Source: Thermoleophilia bacterium
Lineage (GTDB): Bacteria > Actinomycetota > Thermoleophilia > RBG-16-64-13
DNA length: 64,000 nucleotides
Assembly: GCA_050943595.1 (NCBI GenBank)
Contig: JBMNPM010000007.1
Span: 6,288-70,287 of the forward strand
Direction: 5' to 3'
Shown here piece by piece: positions 14,950 through 53,446 of this stretch. The translations under genes and the position numbers were made by a program. Numbering within the stretch: the stretch's first letter is position 1; the number at the start of each line of letters is the position of its first letter. The notes beneath the pieces were generated by a model. It did not search any database. It was given only the letters and a program-made list of their open reading frames with translations, and was not told where the DNA came from.

Positions 14950-14965
14950 CAGTACTCGATCGCCA

Positions 14966-19515: not shown

Positions 19516-20216
19516 CGGGGACCACCCTCCCGGGCCTCGAAGGCGTCGCCATCGTTGAGGGACCCGGCCAGTTCGGCCGAGACAATCCAAACGGGGTTCA
19601 AAGCATCGAAACGCAACTGTCTGCCGACAGCCACGCCACGAGCGATGCTCGCCTGAATGCAATCGAATCCCCGCCACCCCTCTCCACGCAGACACGAAAC
19701 GGTAGAGGACAGGGTCTCCACACATACGCACGGGCAGATAACCATACCCCCGGGTGACAGGATTGACGGCAAAGCAGCAAGTATCTCCGCCAGGCGACCG
19801 CCACTTCCCCCCACGAAGACCCGGTCGAAGCAGCCCAATCCGGCCCAGGCATCCGGCGCTTCTCCCGCGATCACCTGCACACGCGCGGATGCCGGCCGGC
19901 CGTAGTGTCCCGACTGATGAAGAAGCCCAAAATGCTCCAAGCCAAAATGCTCTAGATTTGCCTGCAGGACGGCCAGCGCCTCTCGATCTCTCTCGATAGC
20001 CACGACCTCACCACCCGGGCAGAGCAGGCACGCCTCCACGGTCAGACTGCCGCTTCCCGCGCCCACGTCCAGCACCCGGGCGCCTGGATGCAGGCGCGCT
20101 TTAGACATGAGAAGGGCCCGCACCTCGGCTTTGGTCATGGGCACATCCCCGCGCACAAACTGGTCATCAGGTATGCCGAAAAAGCCGTCGCACAACGCCT
20201 TCCCGTCGACAGTCAT
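19512..20216 (-). CDS. cbiT: Cobalt-precorrin-6B C15-methyltransferase (decarboxylating) CbiT.
   Basis: SAM MTase motif VLDVGAGSGSLTVEA. Contains an in-frame 15-bp tandem duplication (HFGLEHFGL). Confidence 0.75.
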   Translation of the reverse strand: MTVDGKALCDGFFGIPDDQFVRGDVPMTKAEVRALLMSKARLHPGARVLDVGAGSGSLTVEACLLCPGGEVVAIERDREALAVLQANLEHFGLEHFGLLHQSGHYGRPASARVQVIAGEAPDAWAGLGCFDRVFVGGSGGRLAEILAALPSILSPGGMVICPCVCVETLSSTVSCLRGEGWRGFDCIQASIARGVAVGRQLRFDALNPVWIVSAELAGSLNDGDAFEAREGGPR

Positions 20217-22285
20217 GTCTCCTCCCTATCATCCATCTTGTAGGGATGATCCCCGTAGTTCAGTGATGGTCCCTGTGGGCCGGTGACGGTTCCCATGGAT
20301 AACGGTCCCTGTGGGCTGGTGTCGATGAGAACCACGGAGAGCGGGTCAAAGCGCCCGTCCGCGATCTCGGAGAGATTCCCTTCTACTACGTTTTCATCGG
20401 AGTAGCCGAGGCGCTCGAGAACAGTCATCCGACCGTCGATGCCGGCTTCCAACAGGCCGGCCGCCAGGGCCTGGGGATTGTGGGGAAGATCGGTAAGGGC
20501 GAGCACGCGGGGGTGCTCACAGACGGCGGCCAGCACCTCGTCAATGCCCCTGCCGTGCGCGCTTGCAAACCTAACGGCCTCCCAGCTGAGTCCAAGCCGG
20601 ACCAGCGCCAGCTGGAAGGAACTGATGCCCGGCACTACCTGCAAAGCGATGTCGGGAAACCGGCGGCGCAAAGTAGCAAGGATACCGTAGCAGCTGGGAT
20701 CGCCCGAGGCCACCACGACAACCCGCCGATGCAACCGGTCACGCACGGCGGCCTCCACGGCATCCATATCAGAGCCGATAACGATGCGCTCAGCCTGTGC
20801 AGGGGCGAAACGGTCCAGGTGACGCGCACCGCCCACCACCACATGAGCACGTTTGACGGCCTGCCATGCTGCGGCACTGGCATGCTCTTCCGCTCCCGGC
20901 CCCACACCAACCACAGTGATGCCCGGTGACCCACCCAACCTCGAAGTCACCAACGCTTCACGCAATCGCCCACTGCATCCAAGGACCAGGTCGTCATACC
21001 CCACCAGCAGGCAGTCGACCGGAGGCGGCACCCGGTTGGCGGCTCGCGCAGTTAGAGCGGCGCGTGCCTCCGACCTTTGGGCGGCCCGCTCCGCAATATC
21101 ATCCCAAACGTCGGTCAGCCCCGCTTCAGCCAACGCAGGTATGGCGGCCTCCACAGTGGGCAGCTCCAACAGGCGTCCAACCAAACCGGCGGGTGCACCC
21201 GCAGCCCCCGCCAGCGCGGCCACCGTCTCCAGGCGAGCGTCACCGTGGCGGCTGTGCGTGTCGAAGATGCCCGCCGCCACCTTCACCAGCTTCCCCACGT
21301 GTCCGACCAGCACCAGTCGCTCCACCCCGCGCTCTGCGCACACATCGATCAGTGCCCCAATGAAGTTAGAGCAGCGCACGATGGCGACCTCCGGTGCATC
21401 CAGTACCTTCTGGGCTGCACGCTCGCCAAACCCACCCGGAACTAAATAAACAGTGCTTACACCGGCAGCAAGAGCCACGTCGACCTGGGGGATGAGCGAG
21501 CGCAACCAAGCCTCCTCGGAGCGGGGAATCACCCGCCCGCTGGTTCCCAGGATAGAGAGACCTCCTGCAATACCCAAGCGCGGATTGAATGTTCTCTCCG
21601 CCAACTCCCGGCCTCCAGGGATGGTGATGGTAACGCGATAGCGCTTCTCCATCCCAGGGGATCCATCACCCAAAGAATGTGCCTCATCTAGAGCTTCCTG
21701 AAGCGCTTCGGCGATCATCCTTCTGGGGACCGGGTTAATGGCGGGCTCGCCCACATCGAGCTGCAGACCGGCTCGGGTCACGGTCCCCACCCCTTCTCCC
21801 GCCACGAACTGTACCGCCGGCAGACGGGAGGATACGGATCTCAAGGCGGCAGACTCCGGATCGCTGCAAGACCCGGCGCAGAGTTCGGTTCCCGATCCGG
21901 CGCTCAGTCCAGCGCCCGGTCCGACGCCCAGCCCCTCCGTCACTTCCAAGTCCACGTGCACGGTCACTCCATCCGTGACATCCGGGTCGTCCCCCGCGTC
22001 CTTGACCAACTCCGCCCATGCTCGACCCGGACCCGTGATCCCTGCCGCCTCCACGGGCAGAACGACCCGCTCGCCGCTCGGAAGCGAGATATCGACCGCC
22101 TCTACCGCTACACCGGCCAGGACCAAAGCCGCAGCCTTGGCCGCCGCCGCAGCACAGGTCCCAGTCGAGTAACCGGTTCGGTTCTTGCTCGTTGTAGTCA
22201 CTCCTTGTCTGCCATCCGCAGCAGTGCATTGACCGTCGCCGCCGCCAACGGACTCCCTCCCCGAGCACCCTCGATCGATATCCAC
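20213..22285 (-). CDS. cbiD: Fusion protein: cobalt-precorrin-5B C1-methyltransferase CbiD (N-terminal) + cobalt-precorrin-7 C5-methyltransferase CbiE (C-terminal).
   Basis: N-terminal region matches CbiD (RTGYSTGTCAAAAAKAA...ILGTSGRVIP). C-terminal ~200 aa match CbiE (ITVVGVGPG...VVVASGDPSCYG). True start probably near 22205 (just after the cbiC stop). Confidence 0.75.
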   Translation of the reverse strand: MDIDRGCSGRESVGGGDGQCTAADGRQGVTTTSKNRTGYSTGTCAAAAAKAAALVLAGVAVEAVDISLPSGERVVLPVEAAGITGPGRAWAELVKDAGDDPDVTDGVTVHVDLEVTEGLGVGPGAGLSAGSGTELCAGSCSDPESAALRSVSSRLPAVQFVAGEGVGTVTRAGLQLDVGEPAINPVPRRMIAEALQEALDEAHSLGDGSPGMEKRYRVTITIPGGRELAERTFNPRLGIAGGLSILGTSGRVIPRSEEAWLRSLIPQVDVALAAGVSTVYLVPGGFGERAAQKVLDAPEVAIVRCSNFIGALIDVCAERGVERLVLVGHVGKLVKVAAGIFDTHSRHGDARLETVAALAGAAGAPAGLVGRLLELPTVEAAIPALAEAGLTDVWDDIAERAAQRSEARAALTARAANRVPPPVDCLLVGYDDLVLGCSGRLREALVTSRLGGSPGITVVGVGPGAEEHASAAAWQAVKRAHVVVGGARHLDRFAPAQAERIVIGSDMDAVEAAVRDRLHRRVVVVASGDPSCYGILATLRRRFPDIALQVVPGISSFQLALVRLGLSWEAVRFASAHGRGIDEVLAAVCEHPRVLALTDLPHNPQALAAGLLEAGIDGRMTVLERLGYSDENVVEGNLSEIADGRFDPLSVVLIDTSPQGPLSMGTVTGPQGPSLNYGDHPYKMDDREET

Positions 22286-22827
22286 ACCAAGTCCGAGGCC
22301 ATGAGAGCGCTCTTCGATTCCGCAGCATCTACGAAGCCTACCGGCATCCCCACCACCAAGGCCGGACGGGCGACACCCTCGCGCGCCAGAGCGAGGACCT
22401 CGCGCAGACCCGTGGGAGCATTGCCTATGGCCACTATCCCCCCATCAAGGTGGTGGACCAGTGCCCGCATGGCAGTGGCGGCCCGAGTCCGCCCCGTCCT
22501 ACCGGCCTCCTTCGCCACCATCTCGTCCGCGATGGCACACAAGACTTGACCTCCCAGGCGCTCCACCCGGCCCCGATTGACACCCAGCAGCACCATCTGT
22601 GTGTCGGTGATCACAGTGACGCCCTGAGAGAGCGCTTCCACCCCCACTCTCATTGCCCGGGGATGGAATCGCACCATCGGCGCAAGCAACGGGTCGCCGG
22701 AGGCATGCACGAGACGCATCACCACCGGCAACTCCTCGGGGCGACAGCAATCCGGCGGCAGCAGCGAAGCGACGATCTCCATACTGCGCTTTTCTATGTC
22801 CTCGGGACCCAGCACAGCGTCTTTCAT
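22198..22827 (-). CDS. cbiC: Cobalt-precorrin-8 methylmutase CbiC.
   Basis: CbiC/CobH motifs (VHASGDP, ITDTQMV, IVAIGNAPT). Start ATG 22827 overlaps the cbiA stop. Confidence 0.8.
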   Translation of the reverse strand: MKDAVLGPEDIEKRSMEIVASLLPPDCCRPEELPVVMRLVHASGDPLLAPMVRFHPRAMRVGVEALSQGVTVITDTQMVLLGVNRGRVERLGGQVLCAIADEMVAKEAGRTGRTRAATAMRALVHHLDGGIVAIGNAPTGLREVLALAREGVARPALVVGMPVGFVDAAESKSALMASDLVWISIEGARGGSPLAAATVNALLRMADKE

Positions 22828-24314
22828 CCCCTCTCTTTTGATCGTTGTATTGGCAGACCTCCCGGTCTCGACTCTCCGTAGACCGCGCACCTGGCCAGCC
22901 AGTGATCCACAGCCCGAGGACGGCCGGCGAAGTGAAGGTGTATGCATGAGGCGAAGAGATCGCCGCTCACAAAACCCTCGGGGCACCCCTCAACCATATA
23001 GGCCGGTGAGCATCCGTGAAACCTACTCCGGTCGATAATGCAACGAGAGTAGCGAAACTCATGCCCTCGCAGCACATCACCGGCCCGCCCCAGCAGACAA
23101 TCCGCAGCAAGCACTCCCTCGCGATAGCCGACCGACTGCAGGCGTCCGTACACAGTGGCCCTCGCCGGAACCGCACCCACCAACCGATAGGTTGCGCTTT
23201 CGAGATCTGCGAGCGTTTCGGACAGATAGAGGAGCCCGCCGCACTCTGCGTAGGTGGGAAGACCGTCGGCGATAGCAGTGTGTATGCTCTCGATCAGGCC
23301 GGCATTGGCTGCTAGGGTGCCGGCGTGCAGCTCCGGAAACCCGCCCCCCAAATAGAGGCCTTCACACTCAGGAAGCGCCTCCGCCGTTAGGGGGCTGAAG
23401 GGGATCAGGGTAGCACCGGCGCGCTCCAGGGCCCTGAGGTTGTCCTGATAGTAGAAGGCAAAGGCATCATCGAGAGCCACCGCAATCCGGAGGCCACTCG
23501 CTTCTGGACGCTGCGCTGGGGAGAAAGCCGAGGCGGTCGTGCCGTCGACCCGCTCCCCCTTCGAGCTCGATGAACATGGGTCCGACGAACATAAGTCCGG
23601 CGGACATAGACCCGACGAACACCCTTCTCGCGCCACCTCCAGCAGACGATCGAGGTCCACGTGGGCCTCGACAAGCTCGGCCAACCTCCCCATGACCACC
23701 TCTACCTCGTTACCCAGCTCCCCGGCAACCACCAGCCCCAGATGGCGTGTGGGCAGCACGACCTCCGGCGCCGGCGGCACGAGGCCCAAGAGCTCCACCC
23801 CGGCCCGATCCAGAGCCGCGGCCACTGCGCCTAGGTCACGATGAGACCCCCAGCGGTTGAGAATAACCCCCGGCACATCCACACGGTCGTCGTACGTCCG
23901 AAAGCCCAGGGCCAGGGCACCCACACTGGCCGCGGTACGTGATGCGTCCACCACCAGAACCACCGGCACCCCCAGAAGGGCTGCTATATCGGCAGTACTG
24001 GTTGGAGTAACTCCGTCGCGATGGCCGTCGAACAGTCCCATCACCCCTTCGATGACGACCATATCGGCCACGCCTGTCTGCGATGCCACGGCCTCCTGCA
24101 CCGCCTCGCGGCCCATCATCCACAGATCCAGATTACGACCCGGTTGACCCGTCGCGAAGTGCTGGTAACCCGTGTCGAGGTAGTCCGGCCCCACCTTGAA
24201 CCCCTGCACCTGCAAACCGCGGCGTCGCAGCGCGGCCATGATGCCCAGAGCGACGGTCGTCTTGCCGTCGCCACTGCGCGGAGCCGCTATAACGACTGCC
24301 GGTGGCCGCCTCAA
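22824..24314 (-). CDS. cbiA: Cobyrinic acid a,c-diamide synthase CbiA.
   Basis: VIAAPRSGDGKTTVALGIMAAL, with a C-terminal GATase domain. Confidence 0.85.
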   Translation of the reverse strand: MRRPPAVVIAAPRSGDGKTTVALGIMAALRRRGLQVQGFKVGPDYLDTGYQHFATGQPGRNLDLWMMGREAVQEAVASQTGVADMVVIEGVMGLFDGHRDGVTPTSTADIAALLGVPVVLVVDASRTAASVGALALGFRTYDDRVDVPGVILNRWGSHRDLGAVAAALDRAGVELLGLVPPAPEVVLPTRHLGLVVAGELGNEVEVVMGRLAELVEAHVDLDRLLEVAREGCSSGLCPPDLCSSDPCSSSSKGERVDGTTASAFSPAQRPEASGLRIAVALDDAFAFYYQDNLRALERAGATLIPFSPLTAEALPECEGLYLGGGFPELHAGTLAANAGLIESIHTAIADGLPTYAECGGLLYLSETLADLESATYRLVGAVPARATVYGRLQSVGYREGVLAADCLLGRAGDVLRGHEFRYSRCIIDRSRFHGCSPAYMVEGCPEGFVSGDLFASCIHLHFAGRPRAVDHWLARCAVYGESRPGGLPIQRSKERG

Positions 24315-25432
24315 CGGGGCTCCCCATCCGGACGCAGTTCCTCCAATTTCGCAAACGCCGCCAACAGAAGCCGGTTCTGCGCAGGCAGCCGCGGACTTAT
24401 CCTGATGTACTGAGAAAGCCCGAACGATGAGCAGTCACGAACCAGGCACCCCTGCTCCAGCAGACGCCTCCTCACCAAAGCCGCATTCCTCACTCGGACA
24501 AGGAAGAATCCGGCATCTGAGGGGAGAACCGTCCACCCCTGAGCCCACAGCCCCAAGACGAGGTCGTCCCGGCCGCTACGCAACAGCCGGACGGCCTCAT
24601 AATACGCAGCCGGATCATTGAGAACGGCTTCCCCAGCAGCCTGCGCGCAGGCGTTGACGCTCCAGGGAGGCTTTGCAGCGCGAAGAGCCGCAGCCATCGA
24701 GTCGTGGGCCAACGCATAGCCCAGGCGCAGGCCCGCCAATCCCCACGCCTTGGTCATAGAACGAAGGACAACCAAATTCCCACGAGCCAGCGTGGTGGCA
24801 GTCCACTGGGGATATTCCAATAGGTCACAGTAGGCTTCGTCAAGAACAAACACGATCCCCGGAAAGCAGGCCACCAGCTCCTCGATGGCCTGCGGAGGGA
24901 CAGCCGTGCCGGTAGGGTTGTTCGGCGAGCAGAGCCAGCAGAGTTTGGGCAGGAATTGCTCGAGCGCGCGCACAAACGCATCCTCTCGATAGATAAACGC
25001 GCCCTTCTCCAAGAACAGGCGGTGTTCTATAAAAGACGCGCGGGCAATCACGGAGGCGACCTCATACTCGCCGAAGGAGGGGGCAAGGGAAAGAGCCACA
25101 TCTCCTTCGCGGAGAATAATCTGGGCGAGGAGGCGGATGAGTTCGGTGCTCCCGTTGCCCACCACCACCTGGGCAGGGTCTACGCCGTGCCGGATCGCGA
25201 CCGCGCCGGCAAAACCCCGCGCGTCGCGATCCGGGTAGGCCTCCAAAACAGCGCCCGCAATGGCTGCTCGAATCCTCGGCGAGACCGCCAGTGGGGATTG
25301 ATTAGCACTGAAGTCGATCACCTCGGTCCGCTCAAGACCGAGCGCCCGCAACTCAGCCTCGTCGATGCCTCCATGAACGGCAGGTGTCACTGCGAGAGGA
25401 GACGACCGGTTCGAGGTGAAGATCTGAATCAT
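24311..25432 (-). CDS. cobD: L-threonine-O-3-phosphate decarboxylase CobD (PLP class I/II aminotransferase fold).
   Basis: Aminotransferase-like with PLP lysine region (LRSMTKAWGLAGLRLGY) in the cob operon. Start ATG at 25432 (MIQIFTS...). Confidence 0.7.
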   Translation of the reverse strand: MIQIFTSNRSSPLAVTPAVHGGIDEAELRALGLERTEVIDFSANQSPLAVSPRIRAAIAGAVLEAYPDRDARGFAGAVAIRHGVDPAQVVVGNGSTELIRLLAQIILREGDVALSLAPSFGEYEVASVIARASFIEHRLFLEKGAFIYREDAFVRALEQFLPKLCWLCSPNNPTGTAVPPQAIEELVACFPGIVFVLDEAYCDLLEYPQWTATTLARGNLVVLRSMTKAWGLAGLRLGYALAHDSMAAALRAAKPPWSVNACAQAAGEAVLNDPAAYYEAVRLLRSGRDDLVLGLWAQGWTVLPSDAGFFLVRVRNAALVRRRLLEQGCLVRDCSSFGLSQYIRISPRLPAQNRLLLAAFAKLEELRPDGEPR

Positions 25433-25472: not shown

Positions 25473-27752
25473 TCAACATATTTCTCCGCGCACACGTGCG
25501 GCAGCTTTGACCATATTCTCTAGTGAAGCGGTAGCTTCACACCAGCCCCGCGTCTTCAATCCACAGTCTGGGTTTACCCATACCCGTTCCGCCGGAAAGA
25601 CCTCAAGAATTCGGCGGATACGTTCCGCCATCTCCTCAACCGAAGGGATTCGAGGACTGTGAACATCCCAAACACCAGGACCGATCTCACGCGGATACTC
25701 TTGATCTAGGAATGTCCCAAGCAACTGCATACCACTACGACACGCCTCAATGCTAATGACATCGGCATCCATTTCAACGATCCAAGAAGCAATGTCACCA
25801 AAATCACCGTAACACATGTGGGTATGGATTTGCGTCTCATCTCTTACACTTGATGTGGCTATTCGGAATGCGTCAACAGCCCATCTTAAGTATGCGTCTC
25901 TGTCACAAAAACGAAGTGGGAGCCCCTCTCGTAGGGCCGGCTCGTCAACCTGGATGATACGAATACCTGCGGCTTCCAGGTCTTGGACTTCGTCTCGAAC
26001 GGCCAAGGCAACCTGTCGTGCCACATCCTGCCGGTCGATGTCGTTTCGCACGAAACTCCACTGGAGCATTGTCACCGGACCTGTGAGCATACCTTTGAGC
26101 GGCTTGCTCGTAAGTGATTGGGCGAACGTGATCCAACCAAGAGTAATAGCCTCCGGGCGAGAAACGTCTCCATAGATGATCGGGGGCTTGACGCATCGAC
26201 TGCCGTAGCTCTGTACCCACCCGTGCCGGGTCGTGCAGAATCCCTTCAGGTGTTCGGCGAAATACTCGACCATATCGTTGCGTTCCGGCTCGCCGTGAAC
26301 GAGTACATCCACACCAACCTGAAGCTGGGCCTCAACGATGTCGCGAATGAAGTCATACATGGCCTGCTCGTAGTCCGCGTGCAGCGTCTTCCCGGTCTTG
26401 TGCGCGTTGCGAATGCTGCGCATTTCCCGGGTTTGGGGAAAGGATCCAATGGTTGTTGTGGGCAGAAGGGGCAGTTGAAGAGCTGCCTGTTGCAGGGGAC
26501 GTCTCACCGCGTAGGGCTGGTTGCGGTGGAGCATATCTGCAGTGACGGCTTCACATCTCTGCCTGACATGTGGATCGATTGTGTTTGCCGCCTTCTGTAG
26601 ATAAGACTCGGCCTCCGGCTTCGCGGAGGAGACTTCGGAGGAAGCCCCGCCTCCTAGGTAGAGACTGTCCAAAGCTCTGAGTTCCGCACACTTCTGCACG
26701 GCAAAAGCCAGCATGGCGCTGATTGCAGGCTCGATTTCGGTCTCCTCGCCCAAATCCACGGGAACATGGAGGAGAGAACACGACGTGCCAAGCATGACGC
26801 GGTCGGTTCCCAGCGCCTGGGCAGCGTGGTCAATGTGCCGAAGGGCCGTGTCCACATCTACTTTCCATATGTTCCGGCCATCAACGAGACCAAGGGATAG
26901 CGCCGGTCCGCTTGGTAGCCGGTTTATTGTCTCGGTGAGCTGTCCCGGAGCTGAGACGAGATCTATATGAAGTGCACCCAGGCTTGGGTTACAAACCGCG
27001 TCGATATTCTCGTCCAAAGAGCCGAAGTAGGTGGCCAGCATCAGCTTCGCGGGGAAGGCGGCCCTGATCAGACGATCCAGAATCGAGGAGAAGCAGGCCC
27101 GCTCCTCTACGGACATGTGCATGGTCACGATCGGTTCGTCGAGTTGGATCCATTCCGATTTGTCACTGAGAACTCCCAGTATTTCTTCATAGGCTGCAAC
27201 CAGCGACTCGACATGGCCCATAGCGTCGCGGCCTTCGTCTATAACCCTACTCAATCGCAGAAAAGTCATGGGGCCGAGAAGCACAGGCTTGACGCGAATG
27301 CCTGCAGCTACGGCTTCGTCGATCTGGTCGACCAGTGAATGGCAGTCGGGTTGGTAGTGCCCTCGAGAGTCCAGCTCCGGAACAATGTAATGGTAGTTGG
27401 TATCGAACCACTTGGTCATCTGTAGAGCGTGGACACCATCGGAGTCCCGATCGCCCCGAGCCATACGGAAGTAGCTGTGCAGATCAATCAATCCGTCGCG
27501 CCGTCTATACCGCTCAGGCACGGCACCCAGTATCACCGCCGTATCGAGTACATGGTCGTAGAGCGAGAAGTCACCAACCGGCAGAAGATCGATTCCATGT
27601 TCTCTTTGGAGTCGCCAATTTTGCATTCTCACCATACGGGCAGATTCCCTCAGGTCGGCTTCCGAGATCTCGTCCGCCCAAAATGCTTCTAGAGCCAGTT
27701 TCAGCTCCCGTTTCTTACCGATGCGGGGAAAGCCGAGTGTGTGGGTTAGCAT
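25473..27752 (-). CDS. metE: Cobalamin-independent methionine synthase MetE.
   Basis: Two-domain MetE (MLTHTLGFPRIGKKREL...). Start ATG 27752 with GGAG RBS; overlaps the nrdG stop by 7 nt. Confidence 0.9.
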   Translation of the reverse strand: MLTHTLGFPRIGKKRELKLALEAFWADEISEADLRESARMVRMQNWRLQREHGIDLLPVGDFSLYDHVLDTAVILGAVPERYRRRDGLIDLHSYFRMARGDRDSDGVHALQMTKWFDTNYHYIVPELDSRGHYQPDCHSLVDQIDEAVAAGIRVKPVLLGPMTFLRLSRVIDEGRDAMGHVESLVAAYEEILGVLSDKSEWIQLDEPIVTMHMSVEERACFSSILDRLIRAAFPAKLMLATYFGSLDENIDAVCNPSLGALHIDLVSAPGQLTETINRLPSGPALSLGLVDGRNIWKVDVDTALRHIDHAAQALGTDRVMLGTSCSLLHVPVDLGEETEIEPAISAMLAFAVQKCAELRALDSLYLGGGASSEVSSAKPEAESYLQKAANTIDPHVRQRCEAVTADMLHRNQPYAVRRPLQQAALQLPLLPTTTIGSFPQTREMRSIRNAHKTGKTLHADYEQAMYDFIRDIVEAQLQVGVDVLVHGEPERNDMVEYFAEHLKGFCTTRHGWVQSYGSRCVKPPIIYGDVSRPEAITLGWITFAQSLTSKPLKGMLTGPVTMLQWSFVRNDIDRQDVARQVALAVRDEVQDLEAAGIRIIQVDEPALREGLPLRFCDRDAYLRWAVDAFRIATSSVRDETQIHTHMCYGDFGDIASWIVEMDADVISIEACRSGMQLLGTFLDQEYPREIGPGVWDVHSPRIPSVEEMAERIRRILEVFPAERVWVNPDCGLKTRGWCEATASLENMVKAAARVRGEIC

Positions 27753-28399
27753 GAAATAAAATCTCCTTCTGTGTGTGAGGCCAATGTCGATGACTGGGCA
27801 CACCACGGGTGCGGTGGTGTAACCGCGTTATGGATTTCCAAGAACGATTCGGCAGGAACAAGCGTTCGGATTTCTCCGATGTCCTGCGAAGAGAGAAGCG
27901 ACCTATCCCAAGTGACCCGGAATTCGTGCTCAATTCCGCTCTGGGCTATGAGGCTGATGCTCTCGCGTATAGGGACTTCCATCCCTTTTACTCCTGCCAC
28001 AAGATCATATTTGTCAAGTGGAGCTTTGATATCCATAGCTATGTAGGACAACAAACCCTGGGATAGCAGTTGCCTGAGAAGCTCCGGCCTGCTCCCATTC
28101 GTGTCCAGTTTGATATCAAAACCAAGCGCACGAATCAGATGGAGAAAGCGAGGTAGATCCTCCTGCAGAGTAGGCTCTCCACCACTCACAGTCACACCCC
28201 CCAGCCTTCCGACTCGTGTCTCCAGGCGGGCAAGTATGTTGCTTTCGTGCAGAAAGTTGTTGTGATGCGAGTGTCGTGGGATGAGTTGCCGATTGTGGCA
28301 GTAGGGACAACAAAAATTACAGCCCTGAACGAATATCACAGCGGCCACTCGACCGGGGAAGTCGGTGAGAGAGAAGGGGAGGAATCCGCCGATGTTCAT
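27746..28399 (-). CDS. nrdG: Anaerobic ribonucleotide reductase activating protein NrdG (radical SAM).
   Basis: FVQGCNFCCPYCHN radical-SAM cluster motif. Stop/start coupled to nrdD. Confidence 0.85.
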   Translation of the reverse strand: MNIGGFLPFSLTDFPGRVAAVIFVQGCNFCCPYCHNRQLIPRHSHHNNFLHESNILARLETRVGRLGGVTVSGGEPTLQEDLPRFLHLIRALGFDIKLDTNGSRPELLRQLLSQGLLSYIAMDIKAPLDKYDLVAGVKGMEVPIRESISLIAQSGIEHEFRVTWDRSLLSSQDIGEIRTLVPAESFLEIHNAVTPPHPWCAQSSTLASHTEGDFISC

Positions 28400-30600
28400 C
28401 TCTTTTGCCCAATCACATACTCTCTTCGTTTCAGAAACTCAGCCTGTTTTCCATCATTCCACTGACTCACAGGACGCAGATATCCCACTACTCGCGAGTA
28501 GACTTCCGTTGTCTTTCCGCACTGGGGGCAAACGGATTGTTCACCCACTAGATAACCGTGGTCAGCACAAATAGAGAAGGTGGGCGATATCGTGAAATAC
28601 GGAAGAGAATATTCTTGGCACACCGTGCGCACGAAAGCCTTGACTGCTCCGGGGTCGGGTGAAGCCTCTCCCAGAAAGACATGGAAGACCGTTCCCCCTG
28701 TATAGCGTCGCTGAAGGCCGTCCTGCAGGTCGAGAGCGGTGAATACGTCGCCACAGTAGTCCACAGGCAATTGGGTAGAGTTTGTGTAGAGAGCCGGACC
28801 TGTATCGATCTGAGAATCCGTCGGGTCTTGAGGTAACGATAGACCCAGCTTCTTCACCAACACCGCATCAAGACAAGCCAGCCGATGACCGGCACTCTCA
28901 GCCGGAGTAGCTTCAAGGTTGTAGAGATGACCGGTGTCTCGCTGGAAGCCGGCAAGCCGGTAGCGCATGTGGTCAAGTACTCGAGCTGCAAAAGCGAGGC
29001 CATTAGGTGTGCCGATGTCTGCGTCCAGCAGGTTGAGGCAGGCTTCGTTCATGCCAACGAGCCCAATTGTGGAGAAGTGATTATGCCAATAGCACCCGTG
29101 ACGCTCTTTGGCATCGCGAAGATAGAATTTGGAGTAGGGATAAAGATTGGCTTCCGTGTACTGCTCGAGCACCTTGCGTTTGATATCTAGGCTGGACCTG
29201 GCAATATCCATCAGCCGGTCCAGACGCCAAAGAAAATCCTCCTCGTCGTCGGCCAGAAGAGCAATTCTGGGCATGTTGATTGTGACTACCCCGATGGAGC
29301 CGGTAAGAGGATTCGCTCCGAATAGTCCCCCGCCTCGACGCTCGAGTGCGCGAAGGTCGAGACGGAGACGGCAACACATGGAACGAGCGTCATCGGGAGA
29401 CATGTCGGAATTGACGAAATTAGCGAAGTACGGGATGCCGTAGCGAGCGGTTGCCCGCCACAGTCCCTCCAAATGAGGGTTGTCCCAGTCGAAATCCGGG
29501 GTGATGGAATAGGTGGGGATGGGAAAGGTAAATGCCCGGCCTCGAGCATCTCCTTCAGCCAACACTTCCACTAGAGCCTGGTTGAACTGGTCCATTTCCG
29601 CCTGAAACTCACCGTAGGTTTCTTCCTGAAGTTCTCCTCCAATGATGACCGGCCGGCTGCGGAGCCCCTCCGGCGGGCGCAGATCCAGAGAGATGTTCGT
29701 GAAAGGAGTCTGGAAGCCCACACGAGTAGGCACGTTTAGATTGAACACGAATTCCTGAAGAGCCTGCTTGGTATCCGAGTATGTGAGACCGTCATATCGG
29801 ATGAAGGGCGCAAGGAGAGTGTCAAGGCTGGAAAACGCCTGCGCCCCCGCGGCCTCACCCTGGAGGGTGTAGAAGAAGTTGGCCACCTGCCCGAGGGCAG
29901 TGCGCAGGTGCCTGGCAGGACGACTCTCCGCCTTGCCGGCCACCCCCCGGAAACCCTCTCGCAGAAGATCCTCAAGGTCCCAGCCTACACAGTACGGAGC
30001 AAGAGTACCCAAGTCGTGCAGGTGAAGGTCACCCGACTCGTGGGCCTCTCTAATCTCCGAGGAGTAGAGCTTGTTCAGCCAGTAGACCCTGCTGACCTCG
30101 CTGGACACATAATTGTTGAGACCCTGTAAGGAGAAAGCCATGTTGCTGTTCTCCTTAACTTGCCAGTCGAGTTTGTCCAAATAGTTATCGACGAGATCAA
30201 GGTCGGCCTTCTGCGTCAGATCTCGTACGCGGGCGCGCTGGTCCCGGTAAACAATGTAGGCTTTAGCAGTCTTCTTGTAGGGGGAGGCAAGCAATACCTC
30301 TTCGACCAAGTCCTGGACCCCCTCCACCGTGGGAGTCTCACCCCCCAGCATGTCTCGAGCCAATAGAACTACTCGGGTTGAGAGGAACTTCGCAACGTCT
30401 CCATTGTCTTCACTGAACTCTCCGGTGGCCTTGCCCGCCCGGAGTATCGCTGAGGTGATCTTGGCTGTGTCAAAAGGAACCAGCCGCCCGTCTCGTTTGC
30501 GTATCTCGGAGAACGCAGGTAAGTGATGTATCTCCGCCCGAGAGGGCGCACAGGCCGGCAGATCATTGCAGGTTGGGTCCGATGTACCAAATGCCGTCAT
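28396..30600 (-). CDS. nrdD: Anaerobic ribonucleoside-triphosphate reductase NrdD (class III) with N-terminal ATP-cone.
   Basis: ATP-cone (VPFDTAKITSAILRAG); C-terminal Zn-ribbon CPQCG + glycyl-radical region RVVGYL. RBS GGAGAAGG before ATG 30600. Confidence 0.9.
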   Translation of the reverse strand: MTAFGTSDPTCNDLPACAPSRAEIHHLPAFSEIRKRDGRLVPFDTAKITSAILRAGKATGEFSEDNGDVAKFLSTRVVLLARDMLGGETPTVEGVQDLVEEVLLASPYKKTAKAYIVYRDQRARVRDLTQKADLDLVDNYLDKLDWQVKENSNMAFSLQGLNNYVSSEVSRVYWLNKLYSSEIREAHESGDLHLHDLGTLAPYCVGWDLEDLLREGFRGVAGKAESRPARHLRTALGQVANFFYTLQGEAAGAQAFSSLDTLLAPFIRYDGLTYSDTKQALQEFVFNLNVPTRVGFQTPFTNISLDLRPPEGLRSRPVIIGGELQEETYGEFQAEMDQFNQALVEVLAEGDARGRAFTFPIPTYSITPDFDWDNPHLEGLWRATARYGIPYFANFVNSDMSPDDARSMCCRLRLDLRALERRGGGLFGANPLTGSIGVVTINMPRIALLADDEEDFLWRLDRLMDIARSSLDIKRKVLEQYTEANLYPYSKFYLRDAKERHGCYWHNHFSTIGLVGMNEACLNLLDADIGTPNGLAFAARVLDHMRYRLAGFQRDTGHLYNLEATPAESAGHRLACLDAVLVKKLGLSLPQDPTDSQIDTGPALYTNSTQLPVDYCGDVFTALDLQDGLQRRYTGGTVFHVFLGEASPDPGAVKAFVRTVCQEYSLPYFTISPTFSICADHGYLVGEQSVCPQCGKTTEVYSRVVGYLRPVSQWNDGKQAEFLKRREYVIGQKR

Positions 30601-30734
30601 AGCCTTCTCCGTCGTTGTGGAGGCAGAGGCGGGAAGGCCAGGGGTAAACCAAGCTCCCAGGGCACTAGGAACCAGGACACCAGTGAGCCGACCGCCTCTC
30701 TCCCTCGAAGTTGCGGTAGCAGTGCATACTCTCG

Positions 30735-30915
30735 GCCGGTCTTCGGGCTTGTAGGCAGATCCGTCGTGAGACGAGGGGTTCTACTGGTCATCGCTTCCCA
30801 GCCCTAGTTGAGCCAGTGCTTAACTGATGACTTTCGTTCCTACTTACCGCTGCGGGGCAGCTCCGGAATTGCACCGGATTCCCGTGTGAATTGTGAAGCG
30901 TAGGCCACAAATCAC
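30735..30915 (-). ncRNA. Candidate cobalamin riboswitch (divergent variant) in the nrdD 5' leader.
   Basis: Minus-strand transcript contains GGGAAUCCGGUGCAAUUCCGGAGCUGCCCCGCAGCGGUAA (the GGGAA..CGGUG.AA.UCCG...CCCGC...GUAA core), AGCACUGG (B12-box-like), GGGAAGCG and CGGAUCUGCCUAC. A possible anti-RBS (GCCUUCC) lies before the GGAGAAGG RBS. Confidence 0.5.
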
Positions 30916-31178
30916 GCCGACAGCCATTACAGTTTATCCAGGCAAAGGGAGGGCAGTCAAGTATCGGAGGGCGGTTCGAAAAGCGGTCAAGTATCCGTTG
31001 TGGGGAATCCGTTATGGGAGATGCTCAGGCCGGCAACCCTTAGGCGACGCCGTCGGCCTCCACGCGCAACGGCGATCAACACGCATTGGAACAATTCGTC
31101 GCGCTCCGTCGCGCTCGTCAGGTGAGAGGGTTTGAGTAGCCGGGGAAGGCTCAGCTAGAAACAAATCTTGGAGAGTAA

Positions 31179-34100
31179 TTAGTTAGGGCTCCTATATGCT
31201 TCTTTATCAAGGAATTCTTCCAGCGCTTCTGGTAACAGAGGCCTTGAAAAATAGTACCCTTGTATTTCATCGCAAGCTATGTTTCTCAGAAAATCCACCT
31301 GCTCCTTTGTTTCCACACCTTCTGCTGTAATATCCGCCATGAGAGTTCTGGCCAACGAAATAATTGTCTCCACTATAGCAGCTTTCTTTTCCTTTAAATA
31401 GATATCATCTATGATACTTTTATCTATCTTTATTCTGTCAAACGGTATCGATTCCAGCCTATGTAATGATGAGTACCCCTTACCAAAATCATCTAACGCA
31501 ATGCCTACTCCCAGCTCTTTTAGGCTAGATAGTTTTTCAATTACATCCTCAGGATGTTCAGAGAATACGCTTTCTGTAATCTCCAACTCAATATACTTTG
31601 GGTCTACACGATTTCTACCTATAATTTCTGCAAAATCAAGAATGAGATCTTCTACTTGTAGTTGCACAATAGACAGGTTTACAGAAAAACGAAGAGGTGG
31701 AAATCCTCTTAAAATAAGTCTCTTGTGCTCTTGTAGTGTCTGCTCAAACACCCAGAGCCCCACATCATAAATCAATCCAGTTTGCTCTAGTATGGATATA
31801 AATCTATCCGGTGATACTCTTTTATTCCCATCAATAGTCCATCTGAGTAAGGCTTCAGCCCCGACGGTTTTTCCTGTGTCACAACTAACCTGAGGCTGAA
31901 ACTCCAGAAAAAACTCTTTATTCTGCAGTGACCGGAAAAGCCGGTTTGTGAAAAGAGTATTTTCAGCAATATGCTCTTCCAATTTCTTACTATAGAAAAC
32001 AATATCTTTACTCGTATTTTTCGCTTGAAATCCTGCCATGTCGGCATTCTTCAAAAGAGTATATGCATCCTTTCCATCATCTGGATACACAGATATACCT
32101 ATGTGGATAACAGCAAAGAGTGCTTCTACTCCTGTGTCCGCAACTACGGGATGAGAGAAAGAATCAATCAGAGTCTGTGCGCAATTCTCTACCTGCTTAG
32201 TATCTTCTACAGTAGGCAGAACAATAGCAAACTCTCCTTCAGATGACCGTGAGATATCGCAACATTCCTCCAGTAGATTCTCGATCATTGTTGCAGATTT
32301 TATTACTATCTGCTCACCTATACTATGACCAAAGGTATCTTTGATAATCCTCAGATTATCTATTTCAATACTTAATACTGCTAATTTTCCTGAATCTCTT
32401 CTGCTATATATTCTTTGATCCAGTACCTGTATCAACCTATTCTTATTTGCCAATTTTGTATCTTCATCGAAATAAGCAAAATTATACAGTTTTTCTTCAT
32501 CTAGGATCTTTCTCTTCGCATCTCCCAGTATGTTCGCTATAAGGCTTAAGAAGTATGCTTGACTCTCTCTGAGCTTTTCGTCAATCTTACTATACTGTTC
32601 AACGACAAGCACTCCTATTATATTTTCATCAAGCTCTATTGGCAACATATAATAGGAATTTATTCCTCTTGATGTGAAGAATTTTCCTTCATCCCCATCT
32701 TCATCAACGAAAACATTTTTGATGTCTTCGCATGATATAGGTTGTTTATGCTCAATCATAGATTCAACCGTGGGGAAAGCCGCAGCTTCAACCTTCACAC
32801 CCGGGGGGAAAGGAAGTGATTTAGTAGATCCATCCGCCGTATACGCATCAATAATCATTGCATATTCGTAATCCCAACCTAACTCAACCAAATATATTTG
32901 ATCAATTTTAAGTATTTCAGCAGTTGATTTTAGCATTCCACTGATTTTTGCTTTTATATTTTCATTATCAACCGAAATAAAGGAGCTTGAAATTTTTTCA
33001 AGCACTTCGTGTTCTTTCGCAAATCTTTGATATCCTTTTAACTTTGAATCATATTCAGTTGTCAAATATCGGACAAGAACATAAGAAAGTACAACAATAA
33101 CTATTCTTTTCAGATACTGAGTATCATCGATAACGGTATAAGCTTTCGGATGAGTTATCCAAAGAATAACTTGACTTATCAGAGTTATTCCTAAAAAGAG
33201 TAGTGTGTGGATTCTGCTATTAAGAATAATTGTATATAAAAGAAACACTACATATACTGCCCATATTGTTACTCCTCCAATATCAGCATCTCTAATTATG
33301 AAAAAAGACATGCCAACTATGCTTACTACAAGGAATAGAGTGTTCTGAATGTTGTCTTTTGCTGATATATAAGGTATAAATATTAAAAATGCACCTATAA
33401 CTATCACAGTCAAAGCGAGTGGAAGTTCATTTGCCAAACTCCCACTCGCAGTAAAGTATCCTAAAAAGAAGGACCCTGCCCCACCTGCCATAAATATTAC
33501 TGCTGCCGTCTGAAACAAACGCAATCGGCCTTTTTCTAGAGCAATGGTGGAGCCCATAGGCGAATATGTTGCCCTGGGTTTTTCAATAATAAAGCCGAAT
33601 TTCTTCAAGGTTTGAAATAAGACTATTGTGGGAAAGATTAAAAGTATAAGCGTAATTCTAGGAGTTTGGTATAACCCCAATGCACCGGGTAAAATATCAT
33701 TTATTGTTCCCACAACGAGGGGAAGCATTATGGCTATTAAAAAGTACTGCACTTGTCGCTTCATAGGGTTTTGAGGATCAAGTTTTTTCCACCAACGAAT
33801 AATTAATATAACCGCAGCGACTGTATATACAATGTAGTAAAAATTAATCCATATTTGCCCAATATTTGCGGGAAGAGAATTTCTCCATCCAAAATCGCTC
33901 GGTACCATTTCATATTGGTTCTCTGCTAAATACCCAAAGGGTGCAAACAGGAATATATTTATGAAAGTGGGAAAATAGACAATTATAAAGTTTTTAAAAT
34001 TGTTTACTTGATGTTTATTATTTGTTAGTATCAACGCAAAGTGAAGTAACAGGTTGTGGAAGATTCCCCATCCAAAAACAGAGAGGCACCTCCAAAAAGC

Positions 34101-34292
34101 ACTCGATTCCGCCGTCATTGCTGAGTTTGAAATAGAGTACGTGAATGCCCAAATTGCCATTGAGCTTGTTAATAACATAAATAGCCTATTGGTACTGCTT
34201 TTTATGTTGGAAACTATAGCATAGGGACCAAAGAGCATGTAAAAACAAGCGCAAGCATAGTACACAGCAGACATAATTAAGCTGTATTTCAT
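31179..34292 (-). CDS. Multi-TM sensor - GAF - degenerate GGDEF (SEGEF) - EAL c-di-GMP phosphodiesterase.
   Basis: ~12 TM N-terminal region, GAF-like segment, GGDEF-like domain with degenerate motif, intact EAL (EAL, DDFG(K/T)GYSS, QGY). Extremely AT-rich (~33% GC). Confidence 0.8.
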   Translation of the reverse strand: MKYSLIMSAVYYACACFYMLFGPYAIVSNIKSSTNRLFMLLTSSMAIWAFTYSISNSAMTAESSAFWRCLSVFGWGIFHNLLLHFALILTNNKHQVNNFKNFIIVYFPTFINIFLFAPFGYLAENQYEMVPSDFGWRNSLPANIGQIWINFYYIVYTVAAVILIIRWWKKLDPQNPMKRQVQYFLIAIMLPLVVGTINDILPGALGLYQTPRITLILLIFPTIVLFQTLKKFGFIIEKPRATYSPMGSTIALEKGRLRLFQTAAVIFMAGGAGSFFLGYFTASGSLANELPLALTVIVIGAFLIFIPYISAKDNIQNTLFLVVSIVGMSFFIIRDADIGGVTIWAVYVVFLLYTIILNSRIHTLLFLGITLISQVILWITHPKAYTVIDDTQYLKRIVIVVLSYVLVRYLTTEYDSKLKGYQRFAKEHEVLEKISSSFISVDNENIKAKISGMLKSTAEILKIDQIYLVELGWDYEYAMIIDAYTADGSTKSLPFPPGVKVEAAAFPTVESMIEHKQPISCEDIKNVFVDEDGDEGKFFTSRGINSYYMLPIELDENIIGVLVVEQYSKIDEKLRESQAYFLSLIANILGDAKRKILDEEKLYNFAYFDEDTKLANKNRLIQVLDQRIYSRRDSGKLAVLSIEIDNLRIIKDTFGHSIGEQIVIKSATMIENLLEECCDISRSSEGEFAIVLPTVEDTKQVENCAQTLIDSFSHPVVADTGVEALFAVIHIGISVYPDDGKDAYTLLKNADMAGFQAKNTSKDIVFYSKKLEEHIAENTLFTNRLFRSLQNKEFFLEFQPQVSCDTGKTVGAEALLRWTIDGNKRVSPDRFISILEQTGLIYDVGLWVFEQTLQEHKRLILRGFPPLRFSVNLSIVQLQVEDLILDFAEIIGRNRVDPKYIELEITESVFSEHPEDVIEKLSSLKELGVGIALDDFGKGYSSLHRLESIPFDRIKIDKSIIDDIYLKEKKAAIVETIISLARTLMADITAEGVETKEQVDFLRNIACDEIQGYYFSRPLLPEALEEFLDKEAYRSPN

Positions 34293-35241: not shown

Positions 35242-36393
35242 CTAACGATATATCACCCTGTCTCTCCCCTCTCCTTTAGCCAAATAGAGGTTTGTGTCCG
35301 CAGCTTCCAGAAATTCAGAGTAAGAGATGCCCTTTACATAACTACTGAGTCCACCGGAAAGTGTTACCGGCTTACCGTGGCTCCATGCATGCGCCCTCAC
35401 CCGATCGCAAAGTGCCTGCACTATGGGCAGTGCTTCCATCGCAGTTTTGCCCGGCGAAAGCACCACAAACTCCTCTCCGCCATATCGACCGAAGATCTCT
35501 TCTTCTGTCAGACTGTCCCTCATGATCTGCGCAATATTGATTAGAACATTGTCACCATACTCGTGCCCATATGTATCATTTATTTCCTTAAAATAGTCGA
35601 TATCCAATATGCAAACCGTCAATTGCGATCCCGTATCGTACGACCGGCGCATTTCCTCGTCGATGCTCGCTGATAAGAAGCGGCGATTGTATAGGCCGGT
35701 CAGGGCATCGGTCTGTGAGATATGCTCCAAGCGGTTTACCAATCTCATCTTTTCATTATGCAACTTCGTATACGCATTCATAACCCTGTAAACTAAAATA
35801 GAACTAACCACTATACACATGGCATAGGTAAACACCAGATCCTCAAACTGTTCTTCACGGCCGGAATACGGTATAATGATATCCGGATAATGATATTCCA
35901 GCACGACAAATACAATCGACATTATCGATAATGCAGACAGCATACCAATGCGTACTGCTCCTTTGAAAACGAAAGCTACGCACAAAGCTCCCACGAGCAG
36001 TACAGGACCAGTGGAGCCGGTCGCCCCACCAATCGTGAACCATAGAAAAGGAATCAGAAGAAAAACAGAGGAGCCTACAACAATAAGGGCAGATCTATAC
36101 CAGCGCTTTGTGACTATACTATATATAGCGCATGAGATGTTCATCAAGATGTACAACACGTATACCGGCAATATAAGTATGCCTAGATCATTCAATATAT
36201 TATAGCCGATTCCGATCATGACCATAAGAAGACCGGCAGCGGCAGTGTATAGAAAAATATTGTGCTCTAGAGGCAAATCTTTAGTGTCAAAAAACTGAAG
36301 AACTCTTTTAAGCAAACTCATCCTTGTTGTTTTTACGGCGGTATTTTCTTCATTATCAGGTGCTCTCTTTAAGTTAGCTTGTAATAACATCAC
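35242..36393 (-). CDS. Membrane (6-7 TM) sensor diguanylate cyclase (GGDEF, motif GGEEF, no I-site).
   Basis: TM N-terminal half, then TDALTGLYNRR...GRYGGEEFVVL. AT-rich (~38% GC). Confidence 0.8.
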   Translation of the reverse strand: MMLLQANLKRAPDNEENTAVKTTRMSLLKRVLQFFDTKDLPLEHNIFLYTAAAGLLMVMIGIGYNILNDLGILILPVYVLYILMNISCAIYSIVTKRWYRSALIVVGSSVFLLIPFLWFTIGGATGSTGPVLLVGALCVAFVFKGAVRIGMLSALSIMSIVFVVLEYHYPDIIIPYSGREEQFEDLVFTYAMCIVVSSILVYRVMNAYTKLHNEKMRLVNRLEHISQTDALTGLYNRRFLSASIDEEMRRSYDTGSQLTVCILDIDYFKEINDTYGHEYGDNVLINIAQIMRDSLTEEEIFGRYGGEEFVVLSPGKTAMEALPIVQALCDRVRAHAWSHGKPVTLSGGLSSYVKGISYSEFLEAADTNLYLAKGEGRDRVIYR

Positions 36394-39665: not shown

Positions 39666-40625
39666 TTAGCGGGGATACAAGGGTCCAGCAGCCGCCGCCT
39701 CACTCAGCGCGCGCAGGTTCCGGCCCAATACCTTAGAGTAGCCGTCCAGATCAAGTGCGGCCAACCTGGTCCGTAGCGCCTCCGGCAACTCGTCGGCGGG
39801 CAGGTCTTGGAGAATCACATCGGTCTCGGCGCGATCGAATTCAGCCACCACTTTAGGCAACCGGCTGAAGGTGCGGTTGGCCGGACACAGAGCCTGGCAG
39901 CGCATGCAGCCCACCAGGCTATTGTGAGCACGGATGTCGAGCCACTCGGGCCATTCACCCTCACCTTCGTTGAAGAAAGCCAGGCAACGCGCCCCGTCGA
40001 TCACGGTGCCGTTCTCAGGGATGCAACCGGTCGGACATACGTGACTGCAGTTGCAACACGCCGGGCAGAGACTCAAACGCGGACTGCCCGCGAGTTGATA
40101 ATCCACGGCCCCCAGATCGGCATCGGTGCAGAAAACCTCCAGCCGCGCGAACGTACCCATGCCTCTAACATAGGTATGGTTGTTACGTCCATATCGAGCC
40201 AGGCCGGAATAGACGGCCAACAACTTGGCAGGACCGGTGGCCACCCCCACGGAAAAACCCGCGGGCTCCAGGATGGACCGCAGGACCCCCATGCAGCGCT
40301 CCCGCTCTTGGGTGTGGATGTAGGTGGGCGGGATGACGGCCTCCAACGGACCGCCCTCCAGATGAAAGCGTACCTTCACAGGCTGCGAAGACCACGCCAC
40401 CACTATGAGCGTGCGCACCGTGGAGACCTCAGCCGGGCAGGAGAAGGTAAAACTCTCACGATGCCCACCCTCGCCATACACAGTGTCGCTCAGCAGGCAC
40501 TGCTCACACAGGCCGGTCAATATGGCTTCCAGATCGGCTGTCAGCTCCGGACGGACGAGACGGTGATCGTAGCCGGCTTCGCGCAGGCTCCTGGCGATCT
40601 GGTCTCTGATCACGTCATCAGGCAC
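39666..40625 (-). CDS. QueG/RdhA-family 4Fe-4S protein (epoxyqueuosine reductase-like, cobalamin-dependent family).
   Basis: DUF1730-like motif KLLAVYSGLARYGRNNHTYVRGMGTFARLEVFCTD. Two cluster motifs CxxCxxCxxxCP (CPACCNCSHVCP) and CxxCxxxCP (CMRCQALCP). Confidence 0.5.
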   Translation of the reverse strand: MPDDVIRDQIARSLREAGYDHRLVRPELTADLEAILTGLCEQCLLSDTVYGEGGHRESFTFSCPAEVSTVRTLIVVAWSSQPVKVRFHLEGGPLEAVIPPTYIHTQERERCMGVLRSILEPAGFSVGVATGPAKLLAVYSGLARYGRNNHTYVRGMGTFARLEVFCTDADLGAVDYQLAGSPRLSLCPACCNCSHVCPTGCIPENGTVIDGARCLAFFNEGEGEWPEWLDIRAHNSLVGCMRCQALCPANRTFSRLPKVVAEFDRAETDVILQDLPADELPEALRTRLAALDLDGYSKVLGRNLRALSEAAAAGPLYPR

Positions 40626-49930: not shown

Positions 49931-50068
49931 TGAGTCGGAGAGCAAAGATGGCCCTGCCGGTCATCACGCCGCCCTCACGGCCGGCTGCCCACGATACAAT
50001 CACCGCCGGCGCCACTCCATGTCTAGGCGCCGGTTCGTTCAATCGCAGTGACCGTGGAGGGAGCTCGC

Positions 50069-53359: not shown

Positions 53360-53446
53360 CAGGACTATCTGCCCACAGCGTACGAGAGTCCGCTATGACT
53401 TTATGCACTATCCGATGTTTTTATTCGCAAATCTGCAGGAAGATAC

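Follow-up and report, generated by a model that had tools for sequence, protein, structure and literature searches.

The question raised by the 64,000-nucleotide stretch of contig JBMNPM010000007.1 from a Thermoleophilia bacterium, hereafter called the window, is whether the leader of its nrdD gene carries a genuine cobalamin (B12) riboswitch and, if so, how much of the cobalamin gene cluster downstream is placed under its control. An earlier reading of the sequence, the original prediction, had proposed such an element on the minus strand and suggested a covariance model search as the check, and that search bears it out. A scan of the entire window against Rfam gave, at positions 30936-30717 (minus strand), a match to the Cobalamin family RF00174 of clan CL00101 with 89.4 bits and an E-value of 9.1e-21 over model positions 1-189 of 189, which is 58 bits over the gathering threshold of 31.5 bits. 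A local permissive scan of the nrdD leader (30500-31250) returned RF00174 again (E 1.1e-22) and no other Rfam family at E<=1, and a covariance model of our own, built from related aptamers, gave 103.7 bits for the same aptamer. The aptamer lies on the strand of nrdD, 116 nt 5' of the gene. The element is hence a genuine and ordinary cobalamin riboswitch, and the identity, position and strand of its aptamer are established. It had been called the second of the locus, and the other one thereby implied is also real, with an RF00174 match of 105.4 bits at 13298-13117 (minus strand). Quite probably the switch in the nrdD leader, presumably of class I, turns off a coupled operon of B12-independent isozymes and cobalamin-synthesis (cob) genes at ample B12, likely by occluding a ribosome-binding site (RBS).

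Alignments of the aptamer to RF00174 and to eight other aptamers show that the conserved core strands GGGAA, GGUG, GCUGCCCCGC, GUAA and AGCC.GAAGACC are present. The core GGGAAUCCGGUGCAAUUCCGGAGCUGCCCCGCAGCGGUAA occupies 30883-30844, the B12 box variant AGCACUGG occupies 30820-30813 in the RF00174 alignment, its pairing partner GGGAAGCG lies at 30799-30792, and CGGAUCUGCCUAC is found at 30763-30751 (all on the minus strand). The motifs quoted in the original prediction were all where it had placed them, while its description of the B12 box as one base short needs correction. AGCACUGG aligns with the consensus gCCACUGg over its full length and base for base, and the change is a substitution of C by G at position 2 (AGCACUG), which is compensated by a G to C change in GGGAAGCG in the RF00174 alignment; no base has been deleted. 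An extra 21-nt hairpin, CGUC-UCAC-GACG at 30776-30756 (minus strand), separates model positions 155 and 156 in the region of the P6 extension, and this peripheral region itself aligns (model positions 87-158). In the published classification a P6 extension assigns an aptamer to class I and suggests selectivity for adenosylcobalamin (AdoCbl). Judged by its sequence, the nrdD-leader aptamer is thus presumably a class I cobalamin riboswitch selective for AdoCbl. The label 'divergent' given to it earlier is unsuitable because the box variant and the extra hairpin both recur in the nearest related locus, L001, of an Armatimonadota metagenome-assembled genome (MAG; JAKPKV010000096), and the match is in any case full length and far above threshold. 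The aptamer is better described as a normal, full-length one of class I type whose variable stem is specific to its lineage.

The closing helix P1 is likely real where 30923-30916 pairs with 30736-30729 (minus strand). P1 of the RF00174 match contains one G-G mismatch, and its outer pairs are non-canonical. The outermost four model pairs, together with eight unpaired 5' positions, overlap a predicted -10 box and are probably outside the RNA; the non-canonical pairs are explained by this position, since what stands 5' of the predicted transcription start is probably not transcribed. A candidate for the L5-L13 kissing loop was considered by eye and rejected. L5 (UGCAAUU, 30873-30867) finds only a self-complementary match of 4-5 nt, UGCA/UGCAC at 30727-30723, which belongs to the 5' strand of the RBS helix that is predicted below and has no counterpart in L001.

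The association of the riboswitch with nrdD is conserved in relatives. Searches with NrdD covered species-representative genomes and metagenomes, and 160 loci were fetched. The nearest NrdD is that of L001 with 71% identity and the best in the metagenomes has 68%, while the exact protein was found elsewhere only in one 4.3-kb Logan contig (run SRR31066172) that is identical to the window. RF00174 was present 5' of nrdD in 8 of the 11 nearest loci scanned, which belong to Armatimonadota, Nitrospirales and Planctomycetota. Over all 160 loci our own aptamer model gave strong matches (84-139 bits) 5' of nrdD in 11, three of which, from the metagenome set, share their scores with genome loci and are possible duplicates. 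Five more matches were short or weaker (26-54 bits) and were obtained with our own model only, and most Desulfobacterota loci among the 160 gave no match to it. Matches of 82-84 nt to the core model were also seen 5' of nrdD in other lineages (L019 3038-3121, L090 1577-1660 and L074/L115 4492-4573), and these may be class II or variant aptamers without the peripheral extension. The core of the nrdD aptamer is 67% identical to that of L001, the highest value, and 57% identical to that of the window's own cbiK aptamer at 13298-13117. As the core is closer to L001 than to the aptamer in its own cluster, the riboswitch and nrdD appear to have been inherited as a unit.

Likeness to L001 extends beyond the core. 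The RF00174 aptamer of L001 (9595-9822) also precedes nrdD and carries the same AGCACUG/GGGAAGCG variant; its extra hairpin is at the same site with another sequence (GCGACAC...GUGUCGC); its leader lacks an intrinsic terminator and has a CU-rich tract before the RBS; and the same cbiA-to-cobQ series is found on the contig (cbiA-cbiC-cbiDE-cbiT-cbiL-cbiF-cbiG-cbiH-cbiJ-cobQ). The module order in L001 is however permuted, with the cob genes followed by the riboswitch and nrdDG last, and without a metE after them, which illustrates the shuffling of riboswitch-led modules. Also different in L001 is an NrdR-box-like palindrome, CACTACATCTAGTG (9535-9600 region), that overlaps a TTGACA-17-TATACT promoter just 5' of the riboswitch; it would imply dual control of nrdD by NrdR and B12 there. 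The Planctomycetota loci (L013-L016, L018) likewise have one cobalamin aptamer before nrdD-nrdG-metE. Their aptamers, however, lack the outer 5' and 3' parts (model positions 47-167 only), nrdG and metE are 1-1.7 kb apart, and the full cob series is missing, with only a weak CobA-like match (44%) after metE in L013. In L016 a terminator-type hairpin is followed by UUUUGUUU, and the other Planctomycetota have similar hairpins with weaker U-tracts. The platform type therefore differs among related nrdD leaders, L006 for example having a clear RBS hairpin.

The genes behind the riboswitch were identified with NCBIfam equivalog models. The first is nrdD (28396-30600, minus strand), which encodes the class III, anaerobic and B12-independent ribonucleotide reductase (RNR), with 989 bits to NF006126 (cut-off 548) and 519 bits to TIGR02487. 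It is followed on the same strand by nrdG (27746-28399) for the activating radical-SAM enzyme (TIGR02495, 196 bits, cut-off 131), and by metE (25473-27752) for the B12-independent methionine synthase (NF003556, 1039 bits; TIGR01371, 1001 bits, cut-off 930), which has the Shine-Dalgarno sequence AGAAGGAG 5' of it. Next come 11 cobalamin-synthesis genes of the anaerobic pathway (13387-25432, minus strand) in the order cobD, cbiA, cbiC, a cbiD-cbiE fusion, cbiT, cbiL, cbiF, cbiG, cbiH, a cbiJ-cobA fusion and cobQ. The nrdD-nrdG-metE-cob series had been described as a tightly coupled block, and the gene identities as well as the junctions agree with this: nrdD and nrdG overlap by 4 nt, the overlap between the metE ATG (27752) and the nrdG stop is 7 nt, and cobD starts (ATG, 25432) 40 nt past the metE stop, the sole real gap in the block. 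From nrdD to cobQ, 10 of the 13 junctions offer a start candidate that overlaps the previous stop by 4 nt (ATGA, GTGA or TTGA), as do 8 of the 10 junctions within the cob genes; those without one are cbiG/cbiH (overlap of 34 or 139) and cbiJ-cobA/cobQ (-11 or +16). No convincing terminator-like site was found inside the nrdD-cobQ block.

Both fusion genes lie on the minus strand. In the CbiD-CbiE fusion (20213-22201), CbiD covers residues 36-410 and CbiE residues 458-652 of a 690-aa open reading frame (ORF; 20213-22285), and the likely GTG start at 22201 would yield about 662 aa. In the CbiJ-CobA fusion (14966-16444), the precorrin-6A reductase occupies residues 66-259 and the CobA-type corrinoid adenosyltransferase residues 318-492.

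How far a transcript from the nrdD leader might run is suggested by what follows cobQ. Past the stop codon of cobQ (13387) stands a promoter-like TTGACG-18-AATAAT (13323-13294, minus strand) with 10 of 12 consensus matches, then the cbiK aptamer, and then a strong intrinsic terminator at 13066-13035 (minus strand) with a 13-bp stem and seven T. The genes after the terminator are cbiK, a NEAT-like gene, a btuF-like gene for a periplasmic binding protein, btuC, btuD and cbiB. This arrangement does not bear out the earlier proposal of one transcript longer than 25 kb, the block being split at about 13.3 kb by the promoter-like site, the riboswitch and the terminator. Given these three elements after cobQ, a unit led by nrdD would not exceed about 17.5 kb, and the simplest reading of the cluster is that of two B12-gated units, the first of about 17.5 kb led by nrdD and the second of about 7 kb led by cbiK. 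Read-through from cobQ into cbiK is conceivable, and the second riboswitch would re-gate such transcripts. The two cobalamin riboswitches of the cluster have different platforms, that of nrdD being without a terminator and that of cbiK having a classical one.

The cbiK unit has some features of its own. A 26-nt element, CCGGGGCTTCGTTTTTCAGCAGCCTC, occurs there in two exact copies 114 nt apart (12750-12889, minus strand), within an unusually long stretch of about 490 nt from the terminator of the cbiK riboswitch to the cbiK start; no further copies were found in the window, the element matches no Rfam family, and the cbiK leader holds no other RNA family at E<=1. The 299-aa protein encoded between cbiK and the btuF-like gene (10566-11465, minus strand) has a sub-threshold NEAT match (25.9 bits, cut-off 32.8) and may be a corrinoid-binding surface protein.

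The way in which the nrdD riboswitch would act depends on its expression platform. The nrdD start codon, ATG at 30600-30598, is the sole start codon 5' of the ATP-cone, and the ATP-cone family alignments of NrdD begin at residue 31; its Shine-Dalgarno sequence, GGAGAAGG, is at 30610-30603 (both on the minus strand). Between the aptamer and nrdD (30717-30600) no terminator-like site was found. This interval holds a long imperfect hairpin (30703-30619, minus strand), formed by GGAGAGAGGCGG as its purine-rich 5' arm and CCGCCUCUGCCUCC as its CU-rich 3' arm; it is followed by CCACAACGACGG without a U-tract. The segment directly 3' of P1 (30729-30714, minus strand) is predicted to pair with 30611-30599, which hold the RBS and the start codon, and thereby to enclose the long hairpin. 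Thermodynamic prediction gives this RBS helix pair probabilities of 0.6-0.9 with P1 forced or with the 5' strand of P1 blocked, and the unpaired probability of the RBS GGAG is 0.01-0.28 across the free, P1-forced and P1-blocked ensembles. As there is no intrinsic terminator, translational repression by RBS occlusion is the likeliest mechanism on these models, possibly with Rho-dependent polarity. The C-rich end of the leader, with 22 C and 13 G in its last 54 nt (30665-30612), is the reason why Rho could join in the polarity; the whole 116-nt platform has 38 C and 36 G.

It had been suggested earlier that the RBS is sequestered by GCCUUCC (30638-30632, minus strand; another copy is at 31150-31144). 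This anti-Shine-Dalgarno candidate was the preferred partner of the RBS in no computed fold, the segment 3' of P1 taking that place instead. It lies in the 3' arm of the long hairpin, with G30638, C30637, C30636 and C30632 paired and UUC 30635-30633 forming an internal loop. The analogous CU-rich tract 5' of the RBS in L001 leaves GCCUUCC a possible sequestering role. The leader also contains two ORFs, one of 20 codons from 30727, two nt after P1, and one of 64 codons from an AUG at 30791 inside the aptamer, the UGA of which overlaps the nrdD AUG (AUGA).

For the start of the transcript, the sole sigma-70-like match in the nrdD leader is the promoter-like TTGACT-18-TAAACT (30960-30931, minus strand), which agrees with the consensus at 9 of 12 positions and would place the transcription start at about 30925, just 5' of P1. 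Promoter-like sites of this kind are at chance level (2 in 7.6 kb against 3.1 expected), and TTGACT-18-TAAACT alone is not significant. Its -35 box is inside the proximal of two direct repeats, CCGATACTTGACTGC at 30967-30953, the distal one being CGGATACTTGACCGC at 30997-30983 (both on the minus strand). Two 15-bp repeats had indeed been noted earlier; they are identical at 13 of 15 positions and share the 10-mer GATACTTGAC, and their period from start to start is 30 nt and not the 32 given before. Of the promoter or regulator role then suggested for their TTGAC hexamers, the former is plausible; the proximal copy gives the sole promoter-like match of the leader, and the distal repeat has no credible -10 box when the sequence is read by eye. 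A third exact GATACTTGAC occurs at 53442-53451 (plus strand), intergenic and after carB (50048-53359). Here, at 53442-53478 (plus strand), GATACTTGACA (TTGACA), a 16-nt spacer and TATACT make up a near-consensus promoter. With its third copy inside such a promoter, the repeat looks more like an extended -35 element than like a dedicated regulator site; GATAC+TTGAC may be an extended -35 motif in this organism, as this site suggests. NrdR boxes (tandem 16-bp acaCwAtATaTwGtgt, up to 3 mismatches) were absent from 30560-31200, and the only two hits in the whole window were at 33245 and 36116. Far upstream in the leader, 31151-31141 and 31011-31003 form inverted repeats with the RBS or the aptamer core; these were also considered and dismissed, their lengths being about those expected by chance (own estimate) and their positions 5' of the predicted promoter.

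Taken together, the proposed mechanism would run as follows. At ample coenzyme B12 the aptamer would fold around its ligand and the downstream operon, made up of the B12-independent substitutes NrdDG and MetE and then of the 11 genes of the anaerobic corrin pathway, would be switched off. The nrdD RBS and start codon (30611-30599) would be occluded by the segment 3' of P1, by the CU-rich tract, or by both, and repression may spread along the 14-gene coupled message through loss of coupling or Rho-dependent polarity. The genes cbiK, btuFCD and cbiB would answer to their own promoter-like site, riboswitch and terminator.

Several observations weigh against this mechanism. The computed fold of the platform, with a minimum free energy of -58.3 kcal/mol for 146 nt, is unexceptional (z = -1.5), as is a second fold (z -0.9). 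No distinct ON conformer appeared in the three ensembles, in which the RBS is paired with or without P1. The RBS pairing with 30729-30714 is not conserved in L001, no conserved block appears when the platforms of the window, L001, L017 and L006 are aligned with MAFFT, and with best NrdD identities of 71% and 68% there is no close relative for platform covariation. A partner was looked for in the L5-L13 kissing loop and none was identified. At the level of the operon, the GC content steps from 55-56% in nrdDG-metE to 63-65% in the cob genes, which fits a recent fusion of modules in this lineage and leaves room for an internal promoter. Finally, the B12-dependent counterparts nrdJ and metH were searched for in the window and neither was found, so that the logic of an isozyme switch is incomplete here. 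Within the window only a 319-aa Fer4_16 protein (39666-40625, minus strand) hints at an enzyme that uses B12; its match to QueG, the B12-dependent epoxyqueuosine reductase, is weak and sub-threshold (55.9 bits, cut-off 200).

Other explanations of the locus differ in what the aptamer would control and by which means. It may be asked whether the aptamer controls anything at all, being a decaying relic that has lost binding and regulation. The off-consensus B12 box, the G-G mismatch in P1 and the non-canonical outer pairs would fit such a decay, but the match covers the full model with a score far over the threshold, the substitution in the box is compensated, L001 keeps the variants despite only 67% core identity, and the non-canonical pairs lie 5' of the predicted transcription start; a relic is therefore scarcely credible. 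A control exerted through the leader ORFs is also very improbable. In such a scheme ligand folding would hide the start of the 64-codon (30791) or the 20-codon (30727) ORF, and nrdD would be expressed by termination-reinitiation. For the longer ORF, whose AUG comes directly after GGGAAGCG, ribosomes would melt the hairpin without B12 and reinitiate at nrdD, B12 would hide the AUG, and coupling alone would gate the 17-kb, 14-gene message; this version is just as hard to credit. Both ORFs do exist, the frame of the stop/start overlap stays open over 68 codons in the window, 82 in L001 and 41 in L006, and the ppe2 gene of Mycobacterium tuberculosis offers a precedent (PMC11260477). However, this frame contains no start codon in L006 and only non-homologous GTGs in L001, a GC content of about 60% makes long open frames likely, the ATGA overlap reflects only a second codon starting with A, and nrdD has a good Shine-Dalgarno sequence of its own. 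The leader ORFs are hence treated as probably fortuitous.

Two further alternatives deserve somewhat more credit. The main output of the switch may be premature Rho-dependent termination in the leader or early nrdD, with the ligand exposing a C-rich Rho site or uncoupling translation. This is consistent with the missing intrinsic terminator, the C-rich and G-poor last 54 nt, the need of a 17-kb coupled operon for polarity if its distal genes are to be repressed, and the B12 leaders of M. tuberculosis, which show premature termination as well as translational OFF control (PMC11260477). On the other hand, the platform as a whole has no excess of C over G and is highly structured, which disfavours Rho loading; such termination would also be compatible with RBS occlusion. 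We hold it to be a possibility on the unlikely side. A little less likely still is that the riboswitch controls nrdDG-metE only, and that cobD-cobQ is transcribed mainly from an internal promoter in the metE 3' end or in the 40-nt gap, without feedback through the aptamer. The metE-cobD junction is the only real gap, the GC step falls on it, and the modules are separable in relatives, the cob genes standing before the riboswitch in L001 and being absent in Planctomycetota. A weak TTGAAA-16-TAGCAT is found inside metE (25777-25750), but it is at the same chance level as the promoter-like site of the leader (2 found, 3.1 expected). Furthermore, no terminator follows metE and no second aptamer precedes cobD, so that without read-through from nrdD the usual B12 feedback on a cob operon would be lost. 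The reading in which the nrdD-leader switch governs the entire coupled operon at the level of nrdD initiation thus remains the preferred one.

The surroundings of the block bring in a different kind of gene. Directly upstream of the nrdD leader is a gene (31179-34292, minus strand) for a 1037-aa 7TM-GAF-GGDEF-EAL protein, with a GC content of about 36% as compared with 55-64% on either side, and it looks like a low-GC island inserted beside the promoter region of the riboswitch. The window is unusually rich in GGDEF/EAL genes, of the kind concerned with cyclic di-GMP turnover, at least five of which occur in the 64 kb, including those at 978-2363, 2766-3695, 35242-36393 and 60973-63747.

The presence of B12-sensing leaders in front of long polycistrons has classic examples. 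The Salmonella cob operon and E. coli btuB are under translational control by AdoCbl in their leaders. The nrdD locus resembles them in its B12-sensing leader, its long putative polycistron and the probable control at initiation of the first gene, and differs in that their first genes are cbi or btuB genes and not B12-independent isozymes. Closer in gene content are the B12 elements that precede nrdDG in Desulfovibrio vulgaris and Desulfuromonas, for which the rationale was given that available B12 makes the B12-independent isozyme dispensable and leads to its repression; the authors note that further genomes had shown the phenomenon before (Rodionov et al., 2004; PMC545781). Similarly, an RNA-seq study annotates a cobalamin riboswitch in the 5' untranslated region of nrdDG in Propionibacterium acnes (PMC3848588), although NrdR boxes are present there and none are found in the nrdD leader of the window. 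The published nrdDG switches share with the present one the aptamer family and the leader of a class III RNR operon; what sets the present one apart is that nrdDG is continued by metE and 11 cob/cbi genes, all fused into a single coupled block.

The metE riboswitch of M. tuberculosis provides a parallel for the platform, with translational OFF control (Kipkorir et al., 2024; PMC11260477). Here too a B12-independent isozyme follows a leader that has no classical terminator and contains short ORFs. In M. tuberculosis, however, upstream ORFs are experimentally translated, and for ppe2 a riboswitch-controlled upstream ORF with termination-reinitiation has been documented (PMC11260477), whereas the leader ORFs of the window are unconserved and probably fortuitous. 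The locus supplies a further example of a cobalamin riboswitch before nrdDG, from a lineage without a close sequenced relative, and has little import beyond annotation. The B12-independent isozymes and the corrin pathway in an almost gap-free block of 14 genes would make a compact, single-operon response to B12 starvation. Current understanding is not challenged by the riboswitch in the nrdD leader, and the fused operon and the two platforms are tidy and unsurprising. A riboswitch before B12-independent enzymes is an arrangement known since 2003-2004, in comparison with which the cob fusion is only slightly unusual.

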